Position numbers and translations under genes: made by a program. This document shows, piece by piece, positions 27,661-64,000 of a DNA stretch of 64,000 nucleotides. The notes under the pieces were generated by a model. The model was not told the DNA's origin. It did no database searches and saw only the letters and a program-made list of their open reading frames with translations. This DNA comes from Pholidichthys leucotaenia. Its lineage: Eukaryota. Every line of letters starts with the position of its first letter. Position 1 is the first letter of the stretch. The stretch covers positions 342,451,700 through 342,515,699 of the forward strand of contig CM035838.1 in assembly GCA_020510985.1 (NCBI GenBank). Direction: 5' to 3'.

Positions 27661-28750
27661 TATACATGCAATAAAGTGTAGAATAAGAGTGAGTAATACT
27701 AGTCAGCAGTTTAAATATATTAGCGAGCAGCAGATAATGTGGAGAACCATATAGTGCAGTCGGTAATGCAGGAAGAAAACAGTGATGAATGACATGAGTC
27801 TGATTGAGCTGCTGTACATAGTGCACGAGAGTCAATAAGTCACTTAGTGTTCAGCAGTCTGATGGCAGAGGGGAAGAAGCTGTTCATGTGACGGGAGGTT
27901 TTAGTCTGGATGGACCAAAGTCTTCTACCTGAGGGGAGAGGGGCAAACAGTACGTGACCAGGGTGTGAGGGATCGGCTATGATCCGGCCAGCACGCCTCC
28001 GGGTCCTGGAGATGTACAGATCCTGGAGAGATGGGAGCTTGCAGCCGATCACCTTCTCAGCAGTGCGCACGACGCGCTGCAGCCTTAGTCTGTCCCTGGC
28101 AGTGGCTCCTGCGTACCACACGGTTATGGAGGTGGTGAGGATGGACTCGATGATGGCTGTGTAGAACTGCACTAACATCTTGGTGGGTAGCTTGAGCTTC
28201 CTCAGCTGCCGCAGGAAGAACATCCTCTGCTGGGCCTTTTTGATGAGGGAGCTGATGGTCGGCTCCCACTTGAGGTCCCTGGTGATGGTGGTGCCTAGGA
28301 AGCGGAAGGAATCAGCAGTGGTGATGGAAGAGCCTGTGAGGGTGAGGGGGGGCAGAGGGGTTGTGACTTTCCTGAAGTCCACAGTCATCTCCACTGTCTT
28401 CAGAGCGTTCAGCTGCAGGTTGTTGTTGTTGCACCAGGACGCCAGCTGGGCCACCTCTCTCCTGTAGGCGGACTCGTCGCCGTTGGAGATGAGCCCGATG
28501 AGGGTGGTGTCGTCCGCAAACTTGATCAACTTGACAGACTGGTGGCTGGAGGTGCAGGAGTTGGTATAAAGGGAGAAGAGTAGGGGGGAAAGTACACAGC
28601 CCTGGGGTGATCCGGTGCTGATGCTAGCAGAGTCTGAGACAGTCTTTCCCAGCCGCACATGCTGCCTCCAGTCCGTCAGGAAGTTGGTGATCCATCTGCA
28701 AAGGGAGTCAGGCACGTTGAGCAGGGACAGCTTGTCCCGGGACAAATTCT
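27661..28750 (-). mobile_element. Rex1/Babar-like LINE 3' half (RT C-terminus plus 3' UTR), 5'-truncated, inside element X
   Basis: ORF 27840..28745: 'GSPQGCVLSPLLFSLY', 'FADDTTLIG', '…NSFFPSAIRLLNTK'. Confidence 0.75.
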
Positions 28751-29271
28751 AGTGACAAGGGACAAATTCTAGTGATGCATTTTGGAATGGCCTATATCTG
28801 TGGATGATATTTTGCCATGATAGCAATTCCAAAGTAGTAGCTTAGTCATAGCTATCAGGCATTGAATATGATGCCCCATAAATCACAAAATCTGAGGCTG
28901 CGAATTTTTGGAATGATAATACCAACACATATTTACCCTATTAATGAGCAGTTACTTGTTATTACAGCATATCTGAGATACAAATAAAGCACAAAAAACA
29001 ATTTTGACAGTTGGTATTGTAATACTGTGGCATTGCAAAGCACTTCCAATAGAGTACTATAGCGGCTAGTATTAGTCTGTGTCCGAATCATCTATTGCTG
29101 CTTCTTCATAATTGCAGAAGTGAATGTTATTAGAGGATATCTGAGATACAAATGAAGCACAGTAAACAGTTTTAACAGTAGATTAATGCATAATTATTGT
29201 AGGATTACAAAGTAGTCTCCTAGCAAAAGAGTAGTATTCCATTACAGTACTGTAACAGGTAACTAGTAGAT

Positions 29272-30942
29272 CTATTCATCTGTGTCCGAATCATCTGCTA
29301 CTTCATAAGCTTCGCCATCTTCATCTTCTTCCCTCTGGTTGCTGCAGGTCTGCAGTTTGCACATGTATGTGCATTTCAGCTGGTTCATCAGGCACACACA
29401 GTCTGGAAGTTTACAGACGCGGACACATTTGCATGACAGCAACTGCAACACGGCCTCTGGCGCGGGTGATCCACGCATCCACTCAATGGTCAGGTTGTCT
29501 TCCTCATCTGTTGTCCACCCACAGCTCTTTGGGTTGGGACAACAGGTTCCCTCTCAAGGCGGCACCGCCATATCGCAGCCTGGTAGTTGGCCCAAAGCAC
29601 ATGCATGTGCAAACAGTCCTTGCATGGTGGCAGCTGGCTGGACTCCACATCTCCCCGTTTTGCATAGAAGAGGTGGTAGCGGAGATCACTGACATTGCGT
29701 ATGGTGGAGGAAGATTCATACATGCTTCATTGGCTTCACCTTACCATTGGTAATGGCATATACCAAGTCCTGGCCAAATGAGCTGCAGAGATGCTGGATT
29801 CTGTCAGATGGGTTTGAGCGGTCTGTTGAGCCTGTCAGCAGTGTGTTCAGGAACCTGGTCACTGAAGAAGGAATGACCGCATGTTCCGACATCTGAGGTG
29901 GCCATGACTGTCTGTAGTCTTGCTTCTTGATGTCACCTCTCATCTGCAGTGCTGCCTTGTCGATGATGTCCTCACTCCTGTCTGATTCCATGAGTTGCAC
30001 CTTTCTCTGGAGTATTTGGTATGCCTTAACAAGCTCTGGCATAGAAAGGCTGTTGGGATACACAAGTAGTTTCCCATTGTCATCTTGAGTGATTTGCAGG
30101 GCTTCTCCAAACTCAGCTACCAGTTTGCGTCGGATGTGTTTCTTGGTCGAGGCTTTCACTGTTTCCACTCCAAGAGTAACCATGCCCTCGACCAGTCTGG
30201 CTGTGAGGTTGGTCATTGGCACCACATCAGGGTTGACAAACAGTTCTTCTCTTACGTAAGAGAAAAGGTCATTGTATGACTGTTGCTCTGCAGCTTCATA
30301 CTCAGCATCAGTATCAGTTGGAGCAGCACTGGCACCTTTTCCACTGTCCTGTGTGGTGGTGCTTGAATCCTGTGTGTACTCACGGTAGCAAGTCCGGTGG
30401 TAATGACCTTCCGCTGCCACGAGGTCTCTGCTGACGATGGCAAGCATTCTGTTGTCCAGTTTACTGACAGCAGCCTTTCGGACTTTCTCATCGGCACGCA
30501 GTTCAGTGCACTGGACCAGAGGATCTCTAGTCCTATCTCCTTTCAAGTACTTGCTGGTCTTCTCACAGAAGATGCACTCTGCCTCATAAACCCTTGACTG
30601 AGATGGTGCTGGCCTCTGTGACTTTTTTCTTTCCGTTGAGCTTTTGTTTTCTTCTGTGCGCCTCTGCTTGGAAATTATAGCATCGAGGTCCCTTTTCATG
30701 GTGAAAATGCTTCGGCATTTCCGGTGGTAGGCCACAGCTGGTATGGCATCATCTGGCAATCCTTTTGCTAGGTCCAGGATCGGAGCATGCTGTCTTATTT
30801 CAGCGGCTCTCAGCAGGGTTTTCCAGGAGTTGATGTCCTTTGGAGATACTAGTTCTTCATCTGAAGATGAGCAATGGATTATGCAATCAAGGCGTGCGCG
30901 CTTGGGTGCCGTGCCACTCCCTGCTTCTTGGGTGGAATCCAT
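29272..30942 (-). CDS. Unclassified ~550-aa protein-coding region inside element X (408-aa ORF, then 77-aa and 68-aa ORFs after apparent frameshifts)
   Basis: Two modules C-x2-C-x~50-YHR-x-C ('CIIHC…AYHRKCRSIF' and 'CIFCEK…HYHRTCYREY'). An acidic/serine linker. The C-terminal region 'LFYAKRGDVESSQLPPCKDCLHMH' and the CXC-like cluster 'CKCVRVCKLPDCVCLMNQLKCTYMCKLQTC'. No DDE, RT or tyrosine-recombinase motifs recognised. Confidence 0.45.
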
Positions 30943-33491
30943 TTTCAGTTAGGTACATTCATCCAGACCTGCAATGACACCAGGTACTGGTAAATTATCT
31001 CATGTAATTAATTGCATCAATTGAAATTGGCATTGAAATTACTTATTCTTGTCTATAAAGTTGTACACTATTATTCTGGTTTCGTTTTTAATTAAATGTT
31101 GCGATCCTCCAGAACTCCAGTTTCTTTTGGCACACTATAAAAGATAACATTTAATTAATTTTCTTAACTAAGTGATAACCAAAATAAGTCTTAAATACAC
31201 ATTTATATTGACTTGCCTCGCGGCGCTCCACTGGAATGCGAAAATGTGCTGAAATCAAAAATAAATCGTACTTTCTCCCTCAAGAAAAACCTGAAAAGTA
31301 GAAACTGAAAAAAAATTAATATTGGAAACTATCCAAGGTCAATTTCTATTAGCATTTTGTACAGTAAAAGGGAGAATAATTCAGAAATACCAGCATGTGA
31401 TATTAGGCGTCATGATAATTTTACTTAAAAAAAGGAGGTGCCGTGTATCATGACTAAGCTACTCATTTGGAAATGCTATCATGCCTTAATACACATATAT
31501 AGGTCCTACAAACAAAATGGCACCATAGAGGTTTTGTCCCTTTTAGTGGTACCAATATCTGACTCGGCCCATGGACTATACACAGGAAAAGCATGACTCA
31601 ATACACCATGGGTTCTCCTTTTGTACAAACCGCTCATCTCACATTTGCATGACATTTAACATCACAATACATTCATCCTTTCTCACCCCAACTCCTTCTT
31701 CCTGCTATCTCACCATGATCTCCCTAGCTATTGTTCTCCTCTGTTTACCCTCTGCATCCAGTCTGAGATGATTAACCCAGTCTCTACACCTCTCTATAAT
31801 GCCATCTCAGGTTCATATCATCTCTAATGTCAATATACCACTGTCCCACTATAGTCACCCAGGGAATTTAAATTTTCATTCTTCTTGTTTCCTCTAGTTA
31901 TTCTGTGGTTTGGTCTGTGTTATTACCTCATTAGTATCGTTGTGTACCTATTACCTTGGCATCGGAGAGCAGAGTAAGAATTTTATTGCTCAGGAAATGT
32001 TGCATTTCTTAATTGTGCACATGATAATAAGGCCTTTGAATCTTTGAATCTTATTGTGGCTAGTCATACAGTGACAAAAGTGATGGTAAGACACCACGCG
32101 TAATTACTATGGACGGAGAAACCATGAGAGTTAAGCAGTGTCCTGTAGTAGACCAACATGTCAACTGGCCATATAGCGGCTTGTAACATTTCAGTTTGGG
32201 TGAAAAGTTTTGCTGGACGTTACTAGGAAAGGAAGCCTAGCAGACAGCTAGCATCTACAGCAGACTGAGTCACCATTCACCTGTCATCCAAAAGCCATGT
32301 TCCTGAAAATACAAACCTCAATTCCAATGAAGTTGGGACATTGTGTAAAATGCAAATAAAAACAGAATACAATGATTTGCAAACCCTTTTCAATCTATGT
32401 TCAGGATATTTAAAGTTAAAACTATTGTTTTTTGTTGTTGTTTATTTTTGTTTTGTTTTGTTTTTTTAATATTCACTTATTTTGAATTTGATGCCTGCAG
32501 CACATTCCAAAAAAGCCAGAACAGGGGAAGAAAAAGACTGGGAAAGTTGAGTAATGCTCCAAAAACATCTTTTTGGAGCATTCCACAGGTGAACAGGTAA
32601 ATTGAAAACAGGTGAGTGTCATGACTGAGTATAGAAGGAGCATCCCTGAAAGGCTCAGTCATTCACAAGCAAGGATGGGATGAGGTTCACCACTTTGTAA
32701 ACAACTGCATAGGCAAATAGTCCAGTAGTTAATTTAGGGATTTCATCATCTACAGTCCATCAAAAGATTCAGAGATCTTGAGAAATGTCTGCACATAAGC
32801 AGCAAGGCCCAAAACCAACATTTAACGCTTATGACCTTCGATTCCTCAGGCAGCACTGCATTAAAAACCAACATCATTCTGTAAACAATGTGGGCCACCT
32901 GGGCTCAGGAACACTTCTGAAAACCATTGTCAGTTAACACAGTTCATCGCTACATCTACAAGTGCAAGTTAAAACTCTACCATGCAAAATGAAAGCTATA
33001 TATCAACAACACCCAGAAACGCTGTCTATATGGCTCTGGGCCTGAACTCATCTGAGATGGACTGACAAAGTAGAAAAATGTGTTGTGGTCTGACAAGTCC
33101 ACATTTCAAATTGTTTTTGGTAATCGGGGACGTCGTGTCCTCGGGGCTAAAGAGGAAAAGGAGCATCCAGATTCACTTAAGGGCCTTTTCCACTAGCCTC
33201 GCTTAGCCCTACACCGCACCACTCAGCCCGCGTTTGAGCATTTTCCATTAGCCCCAGCACCGGTTAGCAGGCGCTATTTTAGTACCTGATCCAGGGCAGG
33301 GTCTAACTGAGCTGAGTAGGGCTGAGTATGGCTGTGATGTGACTTTAACAGACTGGTCGCCGCTGATTGGTCAGGTCGTAACGTCACGAAAGCGACTTTT
33401 TCTGCTGAATCTACTACACCACCGCCATTTGTAGTTGTTCAGCCAGTGAACACAGTGCGCCCCTTTAATACAGTATTTTCACACTCTGAAG

Positions 33492-35220: not shown

Positions 35221-37185
35221 CCATGTCTCCCCACGCCCAGTCTGTTTTTTTGTTTGTAAATTTTGCTTCTGGAATAAAATTGTATTGTTTGCATCAAAAG
35301 TCTGGTTTATCTGTTATGACACCGTATGAGAAAAGCCAATAATTACATACACATTCCATTCTCTGTTCACTCCACATGCTGCTGTTCATCAGGTCAGGTG
35401 TATAGCCTTCTAATGGTAATTTAATTTTTAACAACACAACGAAACGTAATGTCTTGGTAAGTTTTTTTTTTTAAATTTTAAACAAATTTGCAATGCTGAA
35501 TCCATTTCTCTCGAACGGGTACATTTTTTAGGTTATAAGCAGTTGTACAGGTGTACTTTAACTTGTACAGTAGACACTGATAAAAGTAAGTACATGTAAA
35601 TTGAATGTTGCATCACCAGTCAAAATTTAATAAATTAAGAAGGAATCTAGCAAAAATTTGGCACTAATGACAGTAGACACATCGGACGAGACACAACTGT
35701 GTTTTTGTGGCACACAACTGTTATTACCTACAAGTTGTGCAAAATTTATATTCCCTTTTCCCAAAAATTAAAAATCAATTTGTAAGTAAAAGTGAGAGAC
35801 CTTTACATGGGAATATGACATGTATCAGCACATGATTTATAGTTCAATTTGCATTTCCACCTAAGCAAAAGTGGCTTGTCGAGCTGGATTTTTGTGAAGA
35901 TGGCCTGTGCGGTGTTTCTGCATGTAATTACATACCTGTCAAGTGATACGGTTTCGCCGTATTTTAATACGGGGAAAATGCAATTTTAGCAAATACGGGC
36001 GTATTGCCATTTCTGTACGCCAAAAAGAAAAATATGTGGGAAAAAAAATTATTGAGAATGTGGAGGAACACGTCTTGTGTGTGACCCCCACAGCGTACGG
36101 GGCTGGCAGAGCGCTCAGCATGAGCAATTATCACAACAGTGAGAAGTGTGGACTGATCATTATGCTGATGGCCTCACACCTTCTGTTGTCCTGCTGCTCC
36201 GGAACAGAAAGGAATCTTTGGATGGATAAAGGCTTCTCCAGAGGGCCCTACACACTCCTTCTGTGTTCCATGTAGGAAGAGTATAAAAGTGACTGCATCG
36301 GGGATTTTCGACCTGAAGTCGCACTTCGCTACACAGGGCCACAAAAACTGTGTAGCCAAATCGAAAACGTATCGATCGATGGATGAACATTTTCAGCCAG
36401 TGAGAGAACCGACGCCTTCCACATCCAATGCATCACTAGCAGAAGTGATGGTTTGTCATTTTGTGGCAGAGCACAATCTACCACCATCGGTGGCAGATCA
36501 CTTCTGATCTGCCACCTGATCTGATCTGCCACTTCAGAAATGCTAGAGTCAGCAAAGGCTGCTTCTTGGAACTATAACAAGCAGCATCAGTGAACATTTT
36601 CTTGTTTCAAGTTCATCCAAGTGCATTAGTGTAACAAAGCTGACAATTAAAAACTCTTTAATTCAAAGTGTATATACAGTATCTAGCTGACAGTTAAGAA
36701 CTATATTCAGAATAATTCTTATTGTGTACTTTCAAATTAAGCAATCTACCTTGTGCTAATGTAAATTTGAAAAATATTTTTTATTTATTTTTATTTATTT
36801 ATTATTAATATCATTTTTTTTATTTTATTTTTTTTGTGCTACTTGACTTATTATTTTCACATTACCAAAAAGTTATGGCTCAAGATTGTGTCCATATAAG
36901 TGTACATTTGAATAAATATGTTTGAAATAGTTCATGTTGCAGTTGCTGTTTGTTTAGTTTTTTTTTTCCTTCAGTTTTCTTTCATCTGCCGATAAATACA
37001 GTTTTTAAGTACTCAGTACAGGTGTGAAAGCCCCCCCAATAAGGGAGGCATGAGGTATGCCTTGACAGGTATGTAATTACCCGTACCTTAACAGATAAGC
37101 ATTATGAACAACAGAGGACAGGTAGATGGAGCATGCACAACATTTTATTTACAAAAAACATTTTTGAAATATGTATGCACATAAA

Positions 37186-38570: not shown

Positions 38571-40266
38571 ATGTCACAGTCATTCCTCTCTCCTTCCTCC
38601 TTCCTTCTCTCCTCGTCATCAGCCATTTTCTTTGTTGTGGAGGATTTGGTCGCGTGTTTCACGTCACGAGAGTGTGGCGCCGCCTTGCTGTTCAAGAAAT
38701 CCCACCCACAGCAGGTGTGCCAGCAGGTGTGCCAGCAGTAATGTCGAAAAGCAACCGAGGCAGAACCGAATCGAAGTGAGTCGAGTCGGGTTTTCTAATC
38801 GGGGCTAATGGAAAAGCGCCTTTAGTGTGTTGGTGCCCATGGCATGGGTAACTTGCACATCTGAATCAGAATCAGAATCAGAATCAGAATCAGCTTTATT
38901 GGCCAAGTATGCACAACACATACAAGGAATTTGACTTTGGCTAAAAACTTGCTCTCGTTGTTCAAGTGAAGGATTTAAATAAGGATTCAATGACAACCAG
39001 AGTATGTACAGTAAATTACAGTCTGTCCACGTTTCTATAAAAGGATGCAAATATATACAGGAATATATGCAGTTATTTACTCGGACTAACCACACTTTGC
39101 AGAAATATATGAAAAAATATACAATAACACAGTATTTCAATGTGGACTCAGATTCAGTGATATAATGTGAATGAAGTAAAAAGCAGTGTGAGAGTTATGT
39201 GAAGGGACCATTAATGCTGAATGGAAACATACAGGTTTTGGAGCAACGTATGCTGCCATCCAAGCAACGTCTTTTTCAGGGACATTCCTGCTAACTTCAG
39301 CAAGACAATGCCAAGCCATATTCTGCAAGTGTTACAACAGTGTGGCTTCATCATAAAAGAGCACAGGTACTAAAATGGCCTGCTTGCAGTCCAGTCTACT
39401 GAATTCAAGTTGTACATCAACCAAGAAGGGAAAAGAATTCCACCTATAAAGCTTCAACAATTAATGTCCTCAATTCCTAAATGCTTATTAATTGTTGTTA
39501 AAAGGAAAAATGATGTAACATAGTGGTAAATATGACAGGGGCATGCCATTTGCAAACAAACTTGCTATTTGCAAGCAGCTATTTTGCTGCTATTTGCAAA
39601 CAAAAAATTACAAAGTGTATCAGTTTGAACATTAAATATCTTGTCTTTGTAGTGTATTCAACTGAATAAAGGTTGAAAAGGATTTTCAAATCATTGTATT
39701 CTGTTTTATTTACACTTTACACAATGTCCCAACTTCACTGGAATTGGGGTTTGTACAATTAAGTAAGATGAATCAAAGTCTTCCTTATCTATAAAGACAA
39801 ACTGTTTGTCCGACCGTCAGTGATTAAAGAAAAAGAAACATTTTCCTCAGGCCAAAACATATCCTATGGTTTTCTGTCAAAGGACCTTTTATCCTGTCAG
39901 CCATTTCTCCTCCAACTCCACCCTCTCCAAACAGAGAAAGAAGCGCTTGCTCATAGTGCTGCAGTGATTAGTAGATTAATCATCTAGCTGATCAAAGGAA
40001 AACTTAATAGCAACCAATGTGATAATCATCTATTAACTTATGCACCCATTTCCAGTAAAAATTTAAAAATGTATAATTGTTTTGGGTTCCTAAGCATGAA
40101 CATTTGCCACTTTTTTTGTTTATTGCATTACAAGTGTAATGATTTTTAGTTCTTTACATTTGTTTGTAAAATCAACACATTTGATGACAACACCTAGAGC
40201 TCTGAGATATTGTGATGGGCATTATTATTGTTTAATGTATTTGAGTAGCATGTAAAAATACACTGG

Positions 40267-42883: not shown

Positions 42884-43337
42884 CTATATCACACTGGGCA
42901 TTACATATTTCTTGAGATACAATAATAGAACAATGGTTTCATATTTAAATGTCATATACAGACGTGGACAAAATTGTTGGTACCCCTCTGTTAATGAAAG
43001 AAAAACCCACAATGGTCACAGAAATAACTTGAATCTGACAAAAGTGGTAATAAATAAAAATTCTATGAAAATTAACCAATGAAAATCGGACAATGCTTTT
43101 GAATTGTGGTTCAACAGAATTATTTTAAAAAACAAACTCATGAAACAGGCCTGGACAAAAATGATGGTGCTCCTAGAAAAGCTTGAAAATAATGTGACCA
43201 TAGGGACATGTTCAACCAAGATGTGTCCTCTAATTAACATCACAGGTGTCTACAAACTTGTAATCAGTCAGTCGGCCTATTTAAAGGGTGACAAGTAGTC
43301 ACTGTGCTGTTTAGTGACATGGTGTGTATCACGCTAA

Positions 43338-44375
<1,038 letters not shown>

Positions 44376-44428
44376 GTCAAGGGTACCATCATTTTTGTCC
44401 AGGCCTGTTTCATGAGTTTATTTTTTAA

Positions 44429-45914
44429 CCTCTTGCACTCCGTTGTACCGCGGGCGGGCAAGTCTCTGCGTCCTAGGGCGCACGAGAGCGCACTCGTGCG
44501 CTCTCGGACGCATGACGCATGATAGAGATACTGATGGTGGTGATTTAGTTGGTGTAGGCCTCCAAGCGCTACTGAAAAAAAAAACTGCAGACACAGCCGC
44601 AAACAGATTAGTTCATCTGATTGACCTCTCATTCGACTAATAAGAGCCTTGAATTGGGTTTCTGAAACCTTGAAGAACCAATGAATGAAAACCTAGGAAG
44701 GAGGACCCGCCTACTGTGAATGCAGGAGCCAATTGAAGCACAGAAGTTCGGGCTGGGTGAAAAGAGATTTACTGTTGCAGCAGATGAAAAAAAAGGACGC
44801 TGGACGAACCTGCTACAGATCCAGCAGCATGGAGAACACCCACAAGTGGGACTTGCACTCATTCCAGCAGAATAGACGTTTAGGATTCTCTTCCGTCATC
44901 ATAGACCGACGGAGGCCGACGACAAAGGTCGTAAATCATTCACCAAAACCGCAATATTGGAATTATGTTTTGACCGGGATCCACGAGCGGACCAGCGTCG
45001 CGTTCGTCTGACAATGGGGAAGAGAAGTTCGCCAGGACTCTGCTGCTGTGAAGAGGTAAGGTGTTATAAGCTAAATTATTATTTCTCCCTGAAAACTGTA
45101 ATCCAAAAATGACTTTTGACCGATCGGTAAATTACAACTGTACGGCGCACGAAGTACGAAGTGCGTGCGCCGCGATAAACGGTTCATTTGCCGTGTTCGG
45201 ACCGTGAACGCACCCCCCCCCCCCCGCTGCAGAAGAGGAGCGGGGGGGGGGGTTCATGGTCTGAACGCCCCCGGTCCGTGGGGGGAAGCCGCGCTGACTG
45301 CGCAGCGGTCGCCACATAGCCATATGAGTCTATTCCGTCATGTAGCGATGGCCGTCCTCTGTAGCGAGGGGGGGGACAACCCCCCCCACACACACACACA
45401 CACAGACACAGCCCTGAATGTGACCTTTCATTAGAGCCCAAAATGAAGATTCTACATTGAATTATTCAAAAGTTACAGACGTTTTTCCAAACTGTGCCAT
45501 TTGACACAGTTCTAAAATGCCTGGGAACAGCCTGAGAACAAAGCTGTGTAAAATATTCATTTTTTGTGGTATTGTTACAAAATTTGGACCTCAGCTGGAT
45601 AACACTTGGTTCTACATTTCTGTTGCATTTTCCAGCCAGATCGGACAGCTGTGTGTTATTTGCAAGCATTTGTATCCAAAAAAACACTGTGGCCAAATTT
45701 ATTTTCTTCAAGTTCAGTATGTTTAGATGACTGTAACTCAGTGGCTGGAGCATGTAGAGAGATTATGGATTTTTTGCCAAAAAATTCAAAGTGTTTTCTT
45801 TTAAATGAGACCAACCCCATGAAGATGATGCAAAGGGTTGAAGAACAGCTTTCGATTTACTTTGGGCACGTTATTTTTTGGCGTTTTTAGGAAAATTGCC
45901 CGGAGTGCAAGGGG
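44429..45914. mobile_element. Non-autonomous TTAA-specific (piggyBac-like) TIR element nested in the Tc1 right TIR
   Basis: TIRs 'CCTCTTGCACTCCG' / 'CGGAGTGCAAGGGG'. TTAA at 44425-28 and 45915-18. Excision restores the Tc1 TIR 'tttattttttaaaataattc'. The interior has a G/C-tract palindrome and (CA)n. Confidence 0.6.
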
Positions 45915-46689
45915 TTAAAATAATTCTATTGAACCACAATTCAAAAGCATTGTCTGATTTTCATTGGTTAATTTTCATAGAATTTTTTATTTATTACCAC
46001 TTTTGTCAGATTCAAGTTATTTCTGTGACCATTGTGGGTTTTTCTTTCATTAACAGAGGGGTACCAACAATTTTGTCCACATCTGTATATTTAAGAACCG
46101 ACATTCACAAAATGGTAAAAAGTATATGACCACATTAGATTGTTTTGCCCAAATATTTGGAAAAAAAGTTCTGAGAAATAAAGACTGTATTTGACTATGG
46201 CTGTAATTGTTCAATATATAGGTATAGCATCACAGTTTTGCAAGTTGTTTTTATTTATTTATTTATTTTGGTTTATCATTTTTTTAATTATCAGCACATT
46301 CAGTAACTTTTTTTAAATCTGAAAATCTCATCTTCAGCAGTTATCACAAAGTGACATTTTAATGAAGACTAAATTCATTGAGAACAAGTACTTTTCATAT
46401 CAATTAAGTGTTTCAAAAAATCCTTTATATCCAAAGATATAGTACAAATTTAGACCCCTTACCTATTTTCTGGGCTACAGAAGTGTCAACTAATGACAGC
46501 TTGTCCTACATACAGTTCCTATTGATTTATTTTGTGATACTCAATGTTTATTCTAACTTTGAAGCAAAATTAAATGAAGCTGGTTAGAGTGAAAAAACAA
46601 CATAAAAAAAAACACCAGCTGATCAAAAGTTGTATACCCCCATCAAAAATTCAAGAACAAAAAAATATGTATCTCTCTCTTAACATATA

Positions 46690-51128: not shown

Positions 51129-53361
51129 TTAGTAGACTTGTGGCGGGTTGGTGTAACCCCCACAACAGACTGGACAGACACAGCGCTCGGCTAGAGCAAT
51201 TAACAGAACAGTGAAATGTGTGTATTAATGTCTACAGGCAGCCCCGCTTCTTCTGGCTCACTACTGTGATGTTAATGTGCCTTTCATGCATTGTGTTCAT
51301 GCGTCCTGTCCTTACTGTGACCTAGAGACTGAGATCAATATGTAGATGTGCCTTGTAACCTCTTTGTCTTCCAGCTGGAGCAGAGGCCAGCAATCTGCCT
51401 ATTGTGATGTATGTCTCTCAAATGCAAATGTCTCATGCCTGTTCCGCAATCTCTTTGATCATACCAACTGCTGGGGAATGCTCTTTTATGTATTGTTGTA
51501 GTTGGGTATATACTGTATACTGCACTGTAATCCATGCTCATCCTCTCATTCACTCACTCTTCAGCTGCTGCTGCAGACACACACTTTGTGTCTCCTCCTC
51601 TGAGAGCCTGAGGATCCCGCTCCGGTCTGCTCACACTTGCACCGGAGCGGGGATCCTGTGAAGGCGGTATGATTTAATAAACTCTACTTAAAACCTTCAC
51701 CAACGCTGCCTTATTTCATGCCGCTTCACTGGTGACCCCGAACATGCACACGTTTTGTGCATCGCAACCTTCTGGTCTGGACATCCACGCTGAACCAGCC
51801 GAGGGACACAAGACGTCTCCTCCCTCTCGCCGCTCCAACGCACCATGACCTGAAGGCAGAAAAGAACACGTTGACAATGAACGCAGCACCCGGCAGTGAT
51901 GCTCCGACAACAAGTGAACGCAGCAGCTCCCTTCTGCTTCAGGGAACTCTCTGGACATCACTCACGACCGGGAAAGCCGCAGCAACTTCATGGTGAGATC
52001 TGCACGCCTAGACCGGCACATCCACGCTTGGACTGGCCGCTCTCACAGCTTCTGACACATGATTCTGTGTCTCCTTACGAGAGCGCACGCACCTCGTCCT
52101 TTCTCCACAACGGCGACCTCCACGGCCGATGGAGCACACGTAGACCTGAACGCACCATGACCCATCTGCTGCAACTACAACAGGGATGATTAAGCTCCCT
52201 GACCCTGGCTTTTCCTCTCCAGCTGGCCCACCCACGCACGGAGCCCCGGCACACGCACCGGGGAGTTACGAGGACGGCGCACCACGCACGGGACACATAC
52301 GGCTCCACTGACTGCCTTCCTTCTGCTGCACACTGGCCCTTCAGGCTTGCTCGTACACCTGAGGTACGCAGCTTGCTCACTGGATTTTATGGTCTTAGCC
52401 ACGGCACACAAGGGGAATTCAGCTGTCTGCGGTTCCCGAGGCTTTAGGGTTGCGCCTGCACCTAAAAGTCAAACACGCCAAGTCCCTTTGCTTCCTTTTT
52501 TTTTTTTCCTTACAGCCGCTCCTGTTTTTCTTCACGGCCACGAGAGGAGTCAGAGACTAATTTTTCTTCTTGTGATCTCCGCACGCTCAACGGGACAGCC
52601 CCTCGACGTCGCGGACCAACAAGCAATTTTTGCGCGGCTCGGACAATTTCACTGCTCTCGGCCGGCACTTACCACCACCCCCCCCTCCACCTGCACAGAG
52701 CTTCTCCTGCTCGCTGCCCAAGCTGCATGATCGAGACCTCGGCCGCCTGCTGAGCCCTCTGGGAGGGAGCGTGTGGCGGGTTGGTGTAACCCCCACAACA
52801 GACTGGACAGACACAGCGCTCGGCTAGAGCAATTAACAGAACAGTGAAATGTGTGTATTAATGTCTACAGGCAGCCCCGCTTCTTCTGGCTCACTACTGT
52901 GATGTTAATGTGCCTTTCATGCATTGTGTTCATGTGTCCTGTCCTTACTGTGACCTAGAGACTGAGATCAATATGTAGATGTGCCTTGTAACCTCTTTGT
53001 CTTCCAGCTGGAGCAGAGGCCAGCAATCTGCCTATTGTGATGTATGTCTCTCAAATGCAAATGTCTCATGCCTGTTCTGCAATCTCTTTGATCATACCAA
53101 CTGCTGGGGAATGCTCTTTTATGTATTGTTGTAGTTGGGTATATACTGTATACTGCACTGTAATCCATGCTCATCCTCTCATTCACTCACTCTTCAGCTG
53201 CTGCTGCAGACACACACTTTGTGTCTCCTCCTCTGAGAGCCTGAGGATCCCGCTCCGGTCTGCTCACACTTGCACCGGAGCGGGGATCCTGTGAAGGCGG
53301 TATGATTTAATAAACTCTACTTAAAACCTTCACCAACGCTGCCTTATTTCATGCCGCTTCA
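51129..53361 (+). mobile_element. Element E: non-autonomous LTR retroelement (TRIM/LARD-like) with near-identical 600-bp LTRs
   Basis: LTRs 51129..51728 and 52772..53361, above 99% identical, TG…CA. PBS 'cTGGTGACCCCGAACATG' directly after the 5' LTR. PPT 'ctgggagggagcg' before the 3' LTR. TSD (A)GACT. The ~1.04-kb interior has no gag/pol. Confidence 0.75.
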
Positions 53362-53596
53362 GACTCACCAATTTTTACAAAGCATAAACAAAGATTCACA
53401 GATTTTCCAAATATTCAAAAACTAGTCACAGTTTACAACAGATACACAGTATCACTAGCTATAAAGAAAAATCTACCTCAATGCCATTTAAAAATTCAGT
53501 CCAGTCTCACCAAAATGTGTACAAATAACATGGTTTCTCACCACTTAGAAATTATGGAGCATGTGCACAAAGAAATAAAGAAATGAATTTTTTTTT

Positions 53597-54399: not shown

Positions 54400-54850
54400 G
54401 TGGAGATCATTGAGAGATCCCTGAGTGATGATAAAATGGCCAGATCTCCAAACAATCTTTCAACAGTCACCAAGATCTCTCAATGATTTTCACGGAGCTC
54501 AAGCATCCTCAAAGTTTTGTCCAGTTCCAAAACAATCAATGATCTCCAAAGGGAAGTGATCTCTCAATGAGCACTAAACGATTTGATCAATCTCCCAGTG
54601 AGATCTCTCAGCTATCTTTCACTGAGCTCTATTGGTCTTTCATTAAACACTCAGCAATCCCTCAATGATCTCTCAGCCATCTCTGCCTTCGGGCTGGAAA
54701 AATTTGGCATTCATTGAAAGATCACAGAGATCATTTGGAGAACAATGAGATTGCTGAGTGCTCCTTGAGCTCTTCTTAACCACTCAATGTCATTGATCTC
54801 CCAATGATCTCTCAGCGATCTTTCAATGATCTCTCAGTGATCTGTTATCC
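54400..54850. repeat. Degenerate tandem array of ~20-25-bp 'ATGATCTCTCAGYGATCT' units
   Basis: Recurrent 'gatctctcaatga', 'tctctcagcgatctttcaatgatctctcagtgatc'. Confidence 0.5.
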
Positions 54851-55945
54851 AGGTGACGTTTTGGAGACAGGAACAATTTTCCAGGTGACAGCGCTGCTGG
54901 ATAACATTGTAAACCTAAGCATGATGGCATTTTAGGATTTCCACAGCAGGAAGAACACAGCTGCAGAAGATATAAAGGTAGGCCCCTCTGCAACCCACTC
55001 GGATAGTGAATTCACATCTTTTCACATTTACACCAAGTTAACATACATTTGTGCCACATGAAAAATTTGTGAGTTTGTTTGGTGTGAACACATCTTTAGT
55101 CTTACCTGGTTGGTTTCTAGTGGTCTTAGTTTTATTCTGAAAGTGTTTGTTTACTTTGTAAAGTATTTTCCTATCTGTCCTTAGTAATGATCCTCAGTTG
55201 CTTTTTTCTCATGTGCAATTATCAGTTTTCCATGGCATTTAGCTTGAGCCCCACCTTATGGCATCATTAGACCCTCTCTAAGGCTACGGTCACACTGCAG
55301 GTCTTATTGCTCAATTCCGATTTTTTGCTGAGATACGATTTTTTTGTGTGGGCGTTCACATTATACTTTAAATGAGACCCCCATCAGACTGGAGTACGAA
55401 CGGTCTCCAGCTATGAAGTGACCCGCATACACAGAAGAAAACGTAATGTCAGACACAGCGCTGTTAGCGAAACTAAATATGAGCCCCGAATGACTGGGCG
55501 GGGGACAGAACTTCTTCACCTTTGATGCAGCACAGCAAAATAAATGTTAAAAACGTTCAGAAATGTTTATGCACAAAATAAATGAGACCAGCTTCATTCC
55601 TCTACAGGCCAGATGACCGCTGTGATCAGCTCTGGTTTAACAGAACTGATCGATTAAACAACCCTCTTTAAAATGAGACCCTGTGTCTCAATGGGATTGC
55701 CTGTGTAAATAAGGTTAATAATAAATAATCTTAGCGATTACAATAGGGCTCTTGCCCTAATAAACAGCACAGATCGTACCAGCGGCGTAACACCGGTCCT
55801 GCACAGGAGCCACCAGAGACTCCCCTCTCCTGGACTGTGTTTTCGTATGCCCCTATCTGGCCATTCCGCTCCACAGTCATTTACATATTATATGGGTTCC
55901 CTACACCGCGCCCCCCCCCCCCGCCCCAGAGTCTCAGACTGAGTG

Positions 55946-57154
55946 TCAACCCTCACGTCCTTTTGGCTTCAGTCTCTTCCCATATCTGCTGTAACGAGGG
56001 TTCTTCAACTCCGCGGGTATCTGGCTGCAGGTGGGCAATGGCGGGGGGGGGGGGAGACATTCGACTTGCCCATATGGCTGCTCTGATGAATCGTTTACCT
56101 GGGGAGTTCTCAGTGGGGGTCTTCCACGCCAAGGAGCCCAAGCCAACATCACTTGCTCTTCCGCCACCACAAAGGCGGGCTTAAGTCTGTCTATACATAT
56201 TTTCTCCCGACGACTCCCCAAGTCTAACAAAAAATGTTTGTCCCCTGGTTCCAGCACTCTGAATGGGCCATCGTAGGGTGGGCGCAATGGGGGGGCGGTG
56301 GGCATTGTGCCTGACAAACATGAACGCCGCGTTCTTCAAAGTTTTTGGCACAAAAGCGCGTGGAAAACAGTGGTGGGCCGGGCCCGGTAGCGTGCCTGTG
56401 TCCACGCTATGCTGCGAACGCTGAGACAGATGGTTGTTCGGCGTGGTATTATCTGGTAAAAAATTCCCCGGGGAGCCGCAGTGGCTGAGAAAAAACAAGC
56501 TCCGCCGGGGAAGCCTCCAAATCCTCTTTTGGTGCGGAACGCAACCCTAACAGAACCCACGGCAACCGGTCTACCCAATTTGCATCCGTAAGCGAAGCCC
56601 TGAGCGCTGCTTTCAGTGACCTATGGAAACACTCGCATAACCCATTGGCCTGTGGGTTGTACGCGGTTGTGCGATGAATTGCGACACCCAGGCTACGGGC
56701 CATCCCGGACCAGAGGTCTGAAACAGACTGAGGGCCCCTATTGGACGTGATGTCCGAAGGGATGCCAAAACGTGCCACCCATGTTGTCAAAAAGGCGCGT
56801 GCCATGTCTGCGGACGTGGTTGCCGCTAGCGGGACTGCTTCAGCGTGTGGTGCGGTCCACCACTGTCAGAAGGTGCGTGAACCCCTGCGATGGCGAGAGG
56901 GGGCCTACGAGGTCCACGTGAACGTGGTCAAACCTCTTAGCCGGTATACGAAACGGCTCCAAAGGGGCCTTTGTGTGTCTGTGTACATTGGCTCGTTGGC
57001 ACGCTACGCAGGCTGCAGCCCACTCTTTCACCTGTTTGCACAGGCCTGGCCGTACGAACTTCGCTCCCACCATTTTGACTGACGCGCACACTCCTGGGTG
57101 CGCCAGAGCATAAACTGACTCAAACACGCAGTGGCGCCAAGCAACTGGGACCAC
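55946..57154 (-). CDS. Copy C integrase (fragmented)
   Basis: 'CVACQRANVHRH', '[28 protein letters not shown]', '[15 protein letters not shown]', '[32 protein letters not shown]'. Confidence 0.75.
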
Positions 57155-57179
57155 CGGGCGCGGCCGTCCCGTGGAGACG

Positions 57180-59164
57180 TCACAGATTGGGGGAGGAGGG
57201 CGGGGGGCTTCCGTCTTGCAGTACTCTGCTCTCCAGCCTTAACCCTGTTGGTCCAGACTGGAGCGCGCACACGTCCGCATCGCCAATCTGCTCTGCGACC
57301 ATGGCTGTATAATCTATCCCTACGCAGACTGGGGCCGCTGCTGCGCGCGAGAGGCAGTCCGCCACCACATTCAGTTTACCCAACACATGCTGAATATCGG
57401 TCGTAAACTCCGAGATCGCGGCTAGCTGTCTCTGCTGCCGGCCCAACCATGGTTTCGAAACCTTGGCCATCACATACGTTAGCAGCTTGCGGTCCACGAA
57501 TGCAGTGAAACTGCGCCTTTCCAGCCAGAACTGGAAGTGGCCTATGGCCAGGTGGAGAGCCAGCAACTCTCTGTCGAATGCGCTTTACGCTCACGGTCGC
57601 GCAAAGCCCTGCTAAAAAAAGCGAGCGGCTGCCAAGAACCGGTGATGCATTGCTCCACGACGGCCCCTATGGCCACGTCTGAGGCATCGGTAGTGAGCGC
57701 TATCTGAGCCACCAGGTCCGGGTGCGCCAACAGTGCGGCGTTTGCCAGGGCTGTTTTAACCTCAGAGAATGCCTGCTCCCGCTCCGGAGTCCAGTCGACT
57801 CTGTCCGCCGGTTTCCGTTTCTTGAGCGCGGCGTACAATGACTGCATGAGCTGAGCTGCGCGGGGGAGGAACCGGTTATAAAAGTTAACCATCCCCAAAA
57901 CCTCTTGCAGCGCCCTGACCGTCTAAGGCCGGGGAAAATTCGCCACAGTGCGCACCTTGTCCGGCAAAGGCATCGCTCCCTGCGGTGAGATGCGGTGTCC
58001 CAAAAAATCAATCCCCGTCATGCCAAACTGGCATTTCGCTGGGTTGATTATTAACCCGTGCTCCTCCAACCTCCGGAAAACCATCCTGAGGTGGGTTACG
58101 TGCTCGTCCTCGGACGCGCTGGCCACCAGGATGTCATCCAGGTAGACAAACACAAACGGCAGATCGCGCAACACCACATCCATCATGCGTTGGAATGTCT
58201 GTGCCACGCCCTTTAATCCGAAGGGCATGCGTAAAAACTCAAACAGGCCAAACGGAATTATTACCGCCGTTTTGGGTATGTCCTCCCTGCGCACCGGGAC
58301 CTGGTGGTAACCACGGACCAGATCTATTTTAGAAAAAATATGCGCCCCAGCAAGGTGAATGGAAAAATCCTGAATTTGGGGAATCGGGTAGCGGTCGTGC
58401 GCTGTGGCGTTATTCAATCTGCGGAAATCTCCGCACCATCGCCACGATCCCTTGGCCTTAGGGACCATGTGTAGTGGGGATGCCCATGGGCTGTTTGAGC
58501 ACCTAATGATGCCCAACCTTTCCAAGTTGGCAAACTCCTCACGCGCTATGGCCAGTTTAGCTGTGTCCAGGCGCCGAGGTCGTGCAAAAACGGGCGGCCC
58601 AGTGGTGGTGATAAAGTGCTCCACCCCGTGTTTAGTGATGGCCGCTGAAAACATCAGGACTATGAGTGCTGGGAACTGAGTGAGCAGTGTGTGGAACTTA
58701 CCGCCTGGAGCTGTGACGGCTAGCGTTGTTGGCCCGGCCCCTCGAGCTGTACAGGGGAAAGAATCAAAAGACATTGCATTAACCAAGCATCTGTTAGCAA
58801 CATCGACTAGCAGCCCGTGTGCACACAGAAAATCAGCGCCCAAGATTGGGAAACTGCATGCCGCTATGACAAATGTCCACTCGTACATACGGCCGTGTAG
58901 GGATACAGCCAGTGTCCTCTCACCAAAAGTCCTAATGTCCGAGCCGTTTGCGGCCATCAGCTCGGGGCCGCTTGCTCCCGCTAGCCGGTCGGTGTAGGAC
59001 GGCAGGATGAGGCCCTTTTGGGAGCCGGTGTCTACGAGGAACCGTCTCCCCGAGCGCGAGTCCATCACATAGAGCAGCTTGTTTTCTTCACCGGCGGTCG
59101 CAGCTGCTACTGACTGCCGGCCTTGGCGTTTCCAGAACGCTTGAATTGGCATGGTGGCACACAT
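57180..59164 (-). CDS. Copy C protease, RT and RNase H (413-aa ORF plus fragments)
   Basis: 'FLVDTGSQKGLILPS', '[30 protein letters not shown]', 'VFVYLDDILVAS'. Confidence 0.8.
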
Positions 59165-59891
59165 CGGCGTGCGTTCTCTCCAAAGCGGCAGTGGTGGGAG
59201 CAGAGCGTGTCTCTCTGGCGCTTCCTGGCCCCGCTGCCATCGCCGACTCCTCGCTTCCGCTGGTCATCTCGCTGGGTTCCGACACCACTGCGTTCACTGT
59301 GAGGGCTCTGGTGGTGAGGATGATCCGATCTGCCCCTTGGGCTTGCGCACGGTAGTCACGCGCGGCCAGCAACAGCGAGTTGGCCAGGACCGCTCTTGCC
59401 TCTGTTGGGAGGTTCCAGAGGAAAAGGTGGGCAAACAGAAAATGCCCGTCGTCCGTGCCCATCAACGCCAACATCTTCTCCATCAGTTCGACCGCCGACC
59501 CATCTCCTAACTCGAAGTGCCTCAGGAGCCTCTCTGCTCTCTCACAGTCTGAGAGTGTGTAGCGCCGGGTCAGCGCGGCTTTGAGAGTCCCGTATTTATC
59601 GTGGGCTGGAGGCTGTTTGAGCAGGCTCGCTACTTGCTGAGACGTGCGAGCGTCCAGCGCTGCAACCACATAGTAATATCTGGTGTCATCTGCCGTTATT
59701 CCCCGGAGGGCGAACTGAGCCTCGGTGTGGAGGAACCAAGACTGCGGGTCGTGCAGCCAAAAGTCCGGTAGTTTGACCGAAACGGCGCACGTGTTGCTGG
59801 GGCTTTCCGTCCGGGCCATCTCTGGGATGCTTGCTGTGTTGCTGGGGCTTCCCATCCGGGCCGACTCCGGGGTTTTTGCCTCGTGTTCCAT
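59088..59891 (-). CDS. Copy C gag (267 aa)
   Basis: 'VKLPDFWLHDPQSWFLHTEAQFALRGI'. Confidence 0.75.
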   Translation of the reverse strand: MEHEAKTPESARMGSPSNTASIPEMARTESPSNTCAVSVKLPDFWLHDPQSWFLHTEAQFALRGITADDTRYYYVVAALDARTSQQVASLLKQPPAHDKYGTLKAALTRRYTLSDCERAERLLRHFELGDGSAVELMEKMLALMGTDDGHFLFAHLFLWNLPTEARAVLANSLLLAARDYRAQAQGADRIILTTRALTVNAVVSEPSEMTSGSEESAMAAGPGSARETRSAPTTAALERTHADVCHHANSSVLETPRPAVSSSCDRR

Positions 59892-60449
59892 AATTCGTCA
59901 AGGGTCACCAGTGTGGAGAGTGCAAATAAAGAAACCAGACTTGCACGGCAGGTGAACTTTATTCACTCTCTCACTTCATTCATACACAGAAAAAGCATTC
60001 TCCTCATACACCAGGGTCTCTCCTTTTATATCACCACACTCCTTCCCCCTGCTGTCTGAGATCTTGCATCACAATACATTCAACACATCATCCCCCTACT
60101 GTCCCCGCAGCTACTCCTTCCTGCTGCATCACTGTAACTTCTCCCATCACAATACCTATTGTCCTCATCTGTTTAATCCCCCACGCTCTACCGGCAGACG
60201 GACTATTTGCCTCCCCTCTGCTTCCAGTCCGAGATGATTATCCCAGCGTGGGTTCCCTACACCGTGTTTATTTTGTACCCCAGTCAGTTCATTTTCTCTG
60301 GTGCTTTGCCACAGCATTTTTTTAAATTATGTAATAAATCTTAGTCTTCTAGATTATTGAAAAGTTACTTTACTCCGGGAGGACTTTCTATCAAATGCAT
60401 TTAGTCTGTGGTTAACAAAATATAAACTCTTCATAAATATAATCCAATA

Positions 60450-62026: not shown

Positions 62027-62798
62027 TATAACCAGAATCATAAAGGAATATTTTGTTAGCCATAGAAGAAGAACAATGGTTTTAACTCTAATTTCAATGA
62101 AATAAAAATAAATTCAATAAAATAACTAAAGCTGCAGTCATTTCTGATCAGAACAATTACCATGTAAAAACAAATATTAACAACCAGTTTATGAACACGT
62201 CACAGCTTCCCTATCACAGCAGCTTAGTTTTCCTTATATATTACATTTATTTTTAAAGTGCTTCACTAAACATATGAGGAACAGAGCTGGTTACAAATGA
62301 AGGTGGGTATGGCTGTGTAGTTGTGCATGTACATGTTGGACATATGCATATGTGATTTAACTAGTGTGCATGTATATGTTGGACATATGCATATGTGATT
62401 TAACCTCACGATGAAGGAGACGCAGAGTCTGAGCCCCCTGCGGAGGACAGCGAGAGAAGACATAGGTGTGGACAGAAGACTTCCTGACCTCTGAGGCTCG
62501 AGAGGAGAGAGGGGGGAGTAATGTAAATAAAGGGATGATGAATGTGAATAAAGGGATTGTGATGGGGATGTGTGACCTCCCCTGCGAGGGAGATTCCTTT
62601 ATGTGAGAATGTTTAAAAGGAGGACTTTGGTGTGTTTCCTCCTCTTTGTTTGCTGCTCAAGAATGAGAGCAGACTGTGGGAATGATTGCTTGAAATAAAC
62701 TTGAATTAAATGCAATTCAGTTTCGTTATTCAAGGCTCCCCACAATTGGAGAAGGTCTCAGGGTCCCGGACTCACAGAGTTCAGTTCTGGCGAGCGCA

Positions 62799-63524
62799 GT
62801 GGCCGTCAAGCTGCCTGATTTCTGGCAGGATAACCCACGGTCGTGGTTCCTGCAAGCGGAGTCTCAGTTCGCGCTCGCAGGAGTAACGGTGGATGACACT
62901 AAGTTCCACCATGTCATCGCTAAACTGGACAACAGCACAGCTCGGTGTGTGCAGAGCTTGGTGGAGCAGCCACCCGCGACCGGCAGGTACGACAAGCTGA
63001 AATCCACCCTCATTAAGTTTTTCACCCCCTCGGCCAAAGTGAGGGCGAGGAGGATCCTGTCTTTGCTAGACCAAGGAGGACACAGGCCGAGCGCCTTGAT
63101 GGAGGAGATGATACAGCTGAGAGGGTCGGACAACGATGATTTCCTCTTCCAGTTCATCTTCCTCTCCAACCCCCCGACGCATGCGAGAAGCACGCTGGCC
63201 GGCAAGAAGTGTCACACCCTGGAGGAGTTCCGGGAGCTGGCCCAGGAAGCAGATGGGATTCTGGACGCCTGCGGCGGGCAAGCAACCACAGCGGCGACCC
63301 AAGACAGCGGGGAGCCAGAGGCGGCAGACCCAGGTTGGCCGACGACGGCGGCAGCACGGCCGCGACGAGGTGGAGCCAATGGTCCGGTGGCAGAGGCGCG
63401 GCCCCGACACAGCGGAGGAGAGGATCTCTGCTTTTACCATCGGAGGTTCGCTGATAGGGCACGCAGGTGTGTGCCGCCCTGCAACTTCAAGAGTTCGGGA
63501 AACGGCAAGACCGGGGGTCGCTAG
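62799..63524 (+). CDS. Copy F gag (241 aa) with a Cys knuckle
   Basis: 'AVKLPDFWQDNPRSWFLQAESQFALAGV'; 'CFYHRRFADRARRCVPPCNFK'. Confidence 0.75.
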   Translation: MAVKLPDFWQDNPRSWFLQAESQFALAGVTVDDTKFHHVIAKLDNSTARCVQSLVEQPPATGRYDKLKSTLIKFFTPSAKVRARRILSLLDQGGHRPSALMEEMIQLRGSDNDDFLFQFIFLSNPPTHARSTLAGKKCHTLEEFRELAQEADGILDACGGQATTAATQDSGEPEAADPGWPTTAAARPRRGGANGPVAEARPRHSGGEDLCFYHRRFADRARRCVPPCNFKSSGNGKTGGR

Positions 63525-63529
63525 CAGCT

Positions 63530-64000
63530 TCGACTCTCGGAGAAGGCAACAAGCTGCTCTACATCACGGATACGGGCTCCGGACGAGAGTTCCTCATAGA
63601 CACCGGAGCCCAAGTGAGCTTCATCACCCCAACATACGCGGACCGGGTGGCTGGACCCCGCGGTAGCGGAGCTACGGCGGCAAATGGCTCGAGCATCAAC
63701 ACCTACGGGAAAAGGACCTTGCCTTTATGCTTACATGGCCGCACATATGAATGGACTTTTGTAATAGCGGCGGTGAGTATCAACATGTTGGGCGCGGATT
63801 TTTTGTGCTCACACAATCTGTTAGTTGATCTTGCTAATAGACGGCTGGTAAATGCACTCTCTTTTTACTCTCTCCCCTGTGCAGCTCGAGTGTCCCCGCC
63901 ACCAGCACAGACCCACGTCGCTACAGCAGGTGGTAAGTTTCACATACTCCTCACCCAATTTCCAGCACTCACTGTGCCCACTTTTTCAGCGACAGTCGCG
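63530..64000 (+). CDS. Copy F protease / start of pol, truncated by the window end
   Basis: 'KLLYITDTGSGREFLIDTGAQVSFITP', '[31 protein letters not shown]'. Confidence 0.65.

Follow-up and report, generated by a model that had tools for sequence, protein, structure and literature searches.

A young non-coding LTR retrotransposon of a teleost fish carries the terminal signals of CsRn1-clade Gypsy elements and was probably mobilised by their proteins

We analysed a 64,000-nucleotide stretch of DNA from the fish Pholidichthys leucotaenia (GenBank assembly GCA_020510985.1, contig CM035838.1, positions 342,451,700 to 342,515,699 of the forward strand), referred to below as the window. The window is a nest of teleost transposable elements, among them Gypsy retrotransposon copies A, B and C on the minus strand and copy F on the plus strand. 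Our subject is element E, a plus-strand element at 51139–53361 that is bounded by long terminal repeats (LTRs), and the proteins that could have mobilised it. An earlier note, made from the DNA letters alone, had taken E for a non-autonomous parasite of these Gypsy copies; its claims are taken up where our results bear on them.

From LTR to LTR element E measures 2,223 bp, in agreement with the 2.2 kb first estimated; its right end had been placed exactly and its left end 10 bp too early, at 51129 instead of 51139. The 5′ LTR (51139–51728, TGTGGCG...CGCTTCA) recurs as a direct repeat in the 3′ LTR (52772–53361), and each is 590 bp long, not 600 bp as first described. The near-identity claimed for the pair (above 99%) stood: 588 of 590 positions match (99.66%), and the two mismatches, at 51302 and 51445, are both C>T changes within CpG (CpG>TpG), with none at non-CpG sites. 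Directly outside the LTRs lie plus-strand copies of GACT, at 51135–51138 on the left and 53362–53365 on the right. They form a perfect 4-bp target site duplication (TSD), which settles the earlier value of 4–5 bp and lies within the 4–6 bp looked for in an LTR retrotransposon. The predicted empty site of the insertion, joined at 51138/53362, reads ...TTTTTTTTAGTAGACTCACCAATTTTTAC....

Immediately downstream of the 5′ LTR, a one-nucleotide spacer, C, and a primer binding site (PBS), TGGTGACCCCGA, occupy 51729–51741 of the plus strand, the PBS itself lying at 51730–51741. All 12 of its 12 nucleotides pair perfectly with the 3′ end of vertebrate tRNA-Trp, CCA included, which answers the question of the primer left by the earlier note; the tRNA-Trp antisense reads TGGTGACCCCGACGTGAT..., and that of human tRNA-Trp including CCA is TGGTGACCCCGACGTGATTTGAAC (bioRxiv 10.1101/400127). 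At the other end of the interior, a polypurine tract (PPT), GGGAGGGAG, at 52761–52769 is followed by CG (GGGAGGGAGCG, 52761–52771, plus strand) and so abuts the 3′ LTR, where such a tract had indeed been reported. With near-identical terminal repeats that begin in TG and end in CA, a TSD, a tRNA-complementary PBS and a PPT, E has the structure of an LTR retrotransposon and every cis part that reverse transcription and integration require.

Within the LTR we read a TATA-like box, TATATAC, at 51507–51513, the presumed core promoter, and a poly(A) signal, AATAAA, at 51676–51681, 47 nucleotides before the LTR end (both plus strand). The border between the unique 3′ (U3) and repeat (R) regions would fall some 25–30 nucleotides downstream of the TATA-like box. 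RNA folding, in each case of a single sequence and without covariation support, predicted a hairpin in R at 51610–51657 (plus strand) with a stem of about 16 bp (region 51595–51670, −38.1 kcal/mol, z = −3.4 against shuffles), a 14-bp stem formed by 51658–51672 with 51715–51729 that encloses AATAAA (z = −4.6), and a leader RNA (51540–51900) far stabler than shuffled sequences (z = −5.7). In the predicted leader fold the PBS is unpaired, lying between the AAUAAA-enclosing stem and a small hairpin at 51744–51762. These predicted features are consistent with a leader of retroviral type. ARAGORN found no tRNA in E, and no RNA family was found in E at Rfam gathering thresholds, with nothing relevant at E≤10.

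The interior as a whole (51729–52771) comprises 1,043 bp with 35% C, 58% G+C and a CpG observed/expected ratio of 0.81, and the region between PBS and PPT (51742–52760, plus strand) is non-coding, having no long open reading frame (ORF), Pfam match or protein homologue. The longest ORF of E has 127 codons and a TTG start. Six-frame translation gave no Pfam match at E≤1, and a phmmer search of 1.84 billion representative proteins returned 0 homologues of the longest open frame of E (175 aa). Exact look-up of 10 ORFs of E in a protein collection likewise found none, and no homologue was found of the 85-aa ORF encoded in the LTR, two negatives of little weight because the source genome is outside the collections searched. 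Neither the remainder of the window nor six related loci of other fishes (introduced below) yielded a match to the interior by tblastx, blastn or nhmmer. The earlier statement that E lacks gag and pol thus held up, tblastx against the Gypsy copies of the window included.

The interior also holds splice-like signals, GGTGAGA (51992–51998) and AGGTACG (52362–52368), both donor-like, and at 52496–52515 a run of 12 T followed by CCTTACAG, which resembles a polypyrimidine tract with its acceptor. They may have arisen by chance or descend from a spliced ancestor; the T run, read on the other strand, could also be the A-run of a retroposed insert.

Elements of the CsRn1 clade of Ty3/Gypsy have a Gag of CHCC type, a PBS for tRNA-Trp that reads TGGTGA(G/C)CCCG(T/A), and a TSD of 4 bp (Bae et al. 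2008, PMC2582038), GGCG in PwRn1 (PMC2582038). Further hallmarks are the integrase-recognition motifs TGTGGYG at the 5′ and MSYYAMA at the 3′ LTR end (Benachenhou et al. 2013, PMC3601003, Table 3). We compared E and the Gypsy copies of the window with relatives at six loci (L001–L006) from Kryptolebias, Mugilogobius, Entelurus, Oryzias, Cirrhinus and Sarotherodon. On the minus strand of the window lie copy A (18371–22771, with the rest of its 5′ LTR at 31578–31798), copy B (22936–27660) and copy C (55893–60261, 87.6% identical to A and with a truncated 3′ LTR); copy F, the fourth of CsRn1 type, runs on the plus strand from about 62.4 kb to the window end (62300–64000). In the copies, the domains for reverse transcriptase (RT), RNase H and integrase follow the Gypsy order, and their Gag has the domain DUF7041. 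The CHCC Gag signature, CX2HX9CX3C, was found in C, F and L001–L005 (for example CFYHQRFGAKARRCIPPC). The LTRs of B and L001–L005 start with TGTGG, and TSDs of 4 bp (ATAT or ATGT) flank the elements at L001, L002 and L004, that of B being instead 5 bp. Because the CHCC Gag, the tRNA-Trp PBS, the 4-bp TSDs and the TGTGGYG LTR starts match the published hallmarks, we identify the Gypsy copies of the window, and with them the relatives from other fishes, as members of the CsRn1 clade.

Element E carries cis signals of this clade at the 5′ LTR end and at the PBS, and in large part at the 3′ LTR end. Its 5′ terminal motif, TGTGGCG (51139–51145, plus strand), fits the TGTGGYG consensus (PMC3601003, Table 3), and over its first 9 nucleotides its LTR has the same sequence as that of the Entelurus element at L003. 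The 3′ terminal motif, CGCTTCA (51722–51728, plus strand), agrees with MSYYAMA at 6 of 7 positions, the single misfit being a T where the consensus has A. Across the LTR/PBS junction E shows the same layout, CA, one nucleotide and TGGTGAC, as A, B, C, L001–L005 and L006, and its PBS fits the published TGGTGA(G/C)CCCG(T/A). The claim that the PBS of E is the same as that of B and close to those of A and C was borne out: E and B have CA-C-TGGTGACCCC in common and then diverge, and the corresponding regions of A and C read TGGTGACAATT and TGGTGACCCTTG. An nhmmer profile of the junction between the unique 5′ (U5) region and the PBS, trained on five CsRn1 elements of other fish species only, matched exactly four sites in the window, with E-values of 7e-5 for C, 1.5e-3 for E, 1.7e-3 for A and 3.7e-3 for B; the next match stood at 3.7. 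E scored like the true Gypsy copies.

Spacing and composition agree as well. The distance from AATAAA to the LTR end is 47 nucleotides in E and B, 44 in A, 46 in C, 43 in L002, 41 in L003 and 45 in L004. In the CsRn1 copies and their relatives the gag ATG lies 14–21 nucleotides after the PBS start, and E has an ATG 14 nucleotides after it, as in L003. A GC- and CpG-rich interior between AT-richer, CpG-poor LTRs is a pattern that E has in parallel with A, B and C. The clade elements also have a G-run PPT ending in GC(T)G. The context upstream of the PPT of E, CTGAGCCCTCTGGG, is similar to that of C (CTGAGACTCTGGGG) and to that of A, although the PPT-profile test was not significant. The likeness of CTGAGCCCTCTGGGAGGGAGCG in E to CTGAGACTCTGGGGCGGGG...GCG in C is only suggestive because the PPT-junction profile has no power, A and C not being recovered when left out of its training.

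We conclude, with a probability of about 0.7, that E is a young non-coding, non-autonomous LTR retrotransposon that was probably mobilised by proteins of the CsRn1 clade. By protein criteria it is not classifiable as a CsRn1 member, because it has neither gag nor pol and the signature CX2HX9CX3C is absent from its translations; what it carries is only the cis signals of the clade. Whereas the anatomy of E and its agreement with CsRn1-clade cis signals are observed, the cycle that follows, with its transcript, its particles and its helper, is inferred throughout. Downstream of the TATA-like box (51507) of the 5′ LTR, RNA polymerase II would begin a transcript that runs through the 1-kb interior and is polyadenylated after the AATAAA of the 3′ LTR. 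The RNA would be packaged in particles made of Gag from an autonomous CsRn1-clade Ty3/Gypsy element. Cellular tRNA-Trp would then anneal to the 12-nucleotide PBS one base past U5 and prime the minus strand, with transfer via R, and the GGGAGGGAG tract would prime plus-strand DNA. Finally, the integrase of the helper would recognise the TGTGGCG...CGCTTCA ends and insert the copy with the 4-bp duplication, GACT.

E is no mere CsRn1 element with part of its interior deleted, because in the clade gag starts 14–21 nucleotides into or after the PBS and pol reaches nearly to the PPT, which leaves hardly any non-coding interior, and the interior of E has neither. That interior is either foreign or diverged beyond recognition, and since it retains no trace of gag or pol, it points to an independently evolving non-autonomous parasite lineage. 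On this evidence E and its presumed helpers would share only short terminal signals, some 30–40 nucleotides in all, the promoter-bearing LTR that E has of its own being much longer.

Several observations weigh against CsRn1 proteins as the source of mobilisation. With blastn, tblastx and nhmmer, neither the LTR body nor the interior of E could be matched to A, B or C, nor was any LTR-body or interior similarity detectable to the six CsRn1 loci of other fishes. Local alignment of the E LTR with those of A, B and C gave z = 1.6–3.7 relative to shuffles, a weak test in which B itself cannot be aligned to A or C. E did not stand out in the PPT-junction profile (E = 4.9 to 22). The LTR of E is 590 bp as against 150–410 bp in the clade, and its U5 ends in ...TTCA, as against ...CCACA in nearly all sampled members: that end is found in A, C, F and L001–L006, B ending in CTTCTACA, and in the clade elements compared it is as a rule followed by one spacer base and TGGTGACCCC.... 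A tRNA-Trp PBS is moreover not exclusive to CsRn1. Copy F has a different one: its LTR, which ends in ...CCCCACA at 62744, is followed by A-TTGGAGAAGGTCTC, and downstream come a gag with DUF7041 (from 62799) and, at about 63429, a CHCC motif. Primer choice therefore varies inside the CsRn1 clade in this genome, and since F has another PBS despite its CHCC Gag, the PBS type is characteristic of the clade and not strictly diagnostic. No packaging or leader region common to E and the Gypsy copies could be identified, so that the comparison with the leader of copy B proposed in the earlier note yielded nothing in common. The window contains no intact helper, and blastn and nhmmer searches with the LTR and interior found no second full copy of E in the masked window, only a fragment near 36 kb (see below).

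A narrower form of the same idea, and the one originally proposed, holds that E was mobilised by the very Gypsy families present in the window, either that of B or that of A and C. We regard this as possible and clearly the less probable way to name the helper. B is a candidate helper family and has in common with E the spacer C, TGGTGACCCC, the TGTGG start, the 47-nucleotide AATAAA spacing and a similar LTR age; A and C resemble it in the spacer C, in a TTATTT that lies 12 nucleotides short of the end of U5, and in having CTGAG..CTCTGGG upstream of the PPT. LTR divergence is 2/590 (0.34%) in E, 2/411 (0.49%) in B and 3/291 (about 1%) in A, values compatible with overlapping periods of activity. 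However, these features are clade-wide, being present also in the elements from Kryptolebias, Mugilogobius, Entelurus, Oryzias and Sarotherodon, and therefore do not discriminate between Gypsy families. E has no LTR or internal homology to A, B or C, and the window copies are defective. Of the original proposal of mobilisation in trans by that Gypsy family, the part that stands is thus the match of cis signals to the lineage, and the part that does not is a tie to A, B or C in LTR or interior.

Alternatively, E could be a one-off dead relic in which the interior of a single autonomous insertion was replaced or scrambled, with no propagating family. This we consider unlikely. In its favour, the window holds one full copy, and DNA pattern scans of viral, metagenome and prokaryote contigs found none, although these are not fish genomes and the result carries little weight. 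Against it, the LTRs differ at only two positions, both CpG, so that the loss of about 4 kb of gag-pol and the gain of 1 kb of unrelated sequence would have to fit into a short time, with PBS, PPT and both junctions left intact. Rates commonly assumed for teleosts are a few times 10^-9 per site per year and are not specific to this species; at such rates the LTR differences suggest an age well under about 1 million years, in line with the recent mobilisation that the earlier note had supposed.

A diverged fragment of a related LTR 15 kb away (36061–36195, plus strand) also argues against a one-off relic, as it suggests an LTR type that is repeated. This fragment of about 135 nucleotides is some 78% identical to the first 127 or so nucleotides of the E LTR (blastn E = 2.5e-10, nhmmer E = 1.5e-9), the similarity setting in precisely with the terminal TGTGG. 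The fragment could be what is left of a related LTR or could mark a sequence that was captured into the U3 of E, and it hints that E-type LTRs occur more than once in the genome. The fragment lies in an apparent 7.4-kb element with 95-bp inverted repeats (32310–32404 and 39662–39755). An ORF just downstream of it (about 36230–36510) has a CxxC...HxxxxH zinc-finger-like motif and gave no Pfam match.

We consider it likewise unlikely, and slightly more so, that E came from, and was moved by the proteins of, an LTR lineage other than CsRn1 Gypsy, be it an endogenous retrovirus or some other that happens to employ tRNA-Trp. The model that comes closest is Rous sarcoma virus (RSV) and the related avian leukosis virus (ALV), alpharetroviruses which we take to have a tRNA-Trp primer and a U5 ending in ...GCTTCA. 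The RSV junction presumably reads ...GGCTTCA-TT-TGGTGACCCCGACGTGAT (GCTTCA-TT-TGGTGACCCCGA...), and the junction of E resembles it in GCTTCA and in the PBS. The 590-bp LTR of E, in which a TATA box is joined by a predicted R hairpin and AAUAAA stem, also looks more retrovirus-like than the 150–410-bp LTRs of CsRn1, and a 4-bp TSD would suit gamma- and epsilon-type retroviruses too. RSV nonetheless differs from E in what we take to be a 2-nucleotide spacer, an 18-nucleotide PBS, a U3 that starts AATGTAGTC..., a 6-bp TSD and an avian host, and alpharetroviruses are not known from fish. The 1-nucleotide spacer of E is that of CsRn1, its AATAAA spacing equals that of B, and neither the six-frame Pfam search nor phmmer revealed a retroviral coding remnant in E. 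Among the eleven LTR clades tabulated by Benachenhou et al. (PMC3601003), TGTGGCG fits only the CsRN1 motif.

That the two 590-bp repeats are a segmental or tandem duplication and no transposable element is hardly credible, since no point was found in support, the repeats stop exactly at TG and CA with PBS and PPT at the expected positions, and the flanks beyond them, which the earlier note had named as the place to look, are unrelated apart from the 4-bp TSD, so that sequence outside the repeats is not duplicated and E is therefore not a segmental duplication.

E belongs to a well-known kind of element, and most likely it is an ordinary genomic parasite that borrows the enzymes of others. Along the continuum from miniature terminal-repeat retrotransposons (TRIMs) through long TRIMs to large retrotransposon derivatives (LARDs), elements resemble E in being flanked by a TSD, in having a PBS and a PPT between two LTRs and in lacking coding sequence, and an autonomous partner is presumed. 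TRIMs are below 1 kb, or 1.5 kb in an extended definition, and have LTRs of about 100–250 bp (PMC10886601, PMC13570524), and LARDs exceed 4 kb with a long non-coding interior, the range of 1.5–4 kb being unnamed (PMC13570524). With 2,223 bp and 590-bp LTRs, E is larger than a TRIM and smaller than a LARD and falls in this unnamed range; it also lies in a fish, unlike the TRIM and LARD elements of plants. The label of TRIM/LARD type first given to it hence applies by function and not by size. In many non-autonomous LTR families, as in E, the sequence recurs little or not at all in any partner that can be identified (PMC10886601, PMC13570524).

The CsRn1, PwRn1, AgCR and teleost CsRN1-1 and -2 elements are like E in their tRNA-Trp PBS, 4-bp TSD, TGTGGYG start, MSYYAMA-like end and AATAAA about 41–47 nucleotides from the LTR end. 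Teleost CsRN1 elements are about 4.3–4.6 kb long with LTRs of 174–302 bp (PMC11117352); in contrast to them, E has no gag or pol, an LTR two to three times longer and a 3′ end in TTCA, not CACA. The TRIMp3 elements Cassandra, Helenus and Ajax are also non-coding LTR elements mobilised in trans, as E presumably is, and animal Helenus makes 4-bp TSDs (PMC10886601). Unlike theirs, the LTR of E has no tRNA- or 5S-derived sequence and possesses a TATA box of RNA polymerase II type and AATAAA. An assignment of E to the Cassandra/Helenus/Ajax type was rejected, as ARAGORN and Rfam revealed no LTR segment derived from a small RNA.

More tentatively, and on balance we doubt rather than favour it, E may stand for a vertebrate lineage of non-coding LTR parasites of CsRn1 Gypsy, marked by 30–40 nucleotides in common with the helper, a three-fold longer LTR, a structured R/U5 and a foreign interior. 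The terminal signals shared in such a lineage may be the integrase attachment (att) ends, the 1-nucleotide spacer with the tRNA-Trp PBS, and the PPT. If real, this would possibly be the first CsRn1-dependent non-autonomous family described in vertebrates. An abundant family would make plain how small a stretch of sequence a parasite must have in common with its Gypsy helper, and recent insertion polymorphisms could be used as markers; if it is multi-copy and active, it would offer a natural system in fish for the minimal cis requirements of mobilisation in trans. Protein-based annotation of transposable elements would overlook E itself, a genuine young LTR element, which is to be catalogued as non-autonomous with CsRn1-type signals. 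Its value lies mainly in annotation, and the findings leave the current understanding of retrotransposon biology unchanged.

The reading frames of the neighbouring copies A, B and C are broken. Copy B, with its 411-bp LTRs (99.5% identical), TSD GTATA and PBS TGGTGACCCC, is a young but defective insertion: its gag (26660–27230, minus strand) is interrupted, the ORF stopping just past the start of DUF7041 and the CHCC motif being split between two frames. The closest matches to the B pol (66–72% identical) and the C gag (60%) come from cichlids, Pholidichthys, Kryptolebias and others. The 5′ LTR of A is split into 22702–22771 and 31578–31798 by an 8.8-kb nested insert. This insert is a long interspersed nuclear element (LINE) with RVT_1 and ALKBH8_N ORFs (27661–31577 plus 22772–22935), which itself carries copy B. 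Among the relatives, the locus from Entelurus aequoreus (L003, GCA_033978785.2) holds at 60350–64593 a complete 4.2-kb element of CsRn1 type with 170-bp LTRs that are 99.4% identical, which public annotation has merged into an ankyrin-repeat gene model (protein P0027).

The window also holds further elements. An older LTR element on the minus strand (774–15106), unrelated to E in its cis signals, has LTRs about 94% identical (774–1268 and 14609–15106) and a 1,014-aa RT-RNase H-integrase ORF; its LTR start, TGAAAGGG, and PBS-like sequence, TGGTGCTGTGACCC, are unlike the termini and PBS of E. A Tc1/Sleeping-Beauty-like transposase ORF (43368–44375, 335 aa) lies within 42954–46090 and is flanked by 176-bp inverted repeats that are 97.7% identical (42954–43128 and 45915–46090). 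About 1 kb downstream of E, at 54400–54860, there are degenerate direct and inverted repeats with an 11-bp period, of the type GATCTCTCAAT/GAGATCATTGA.

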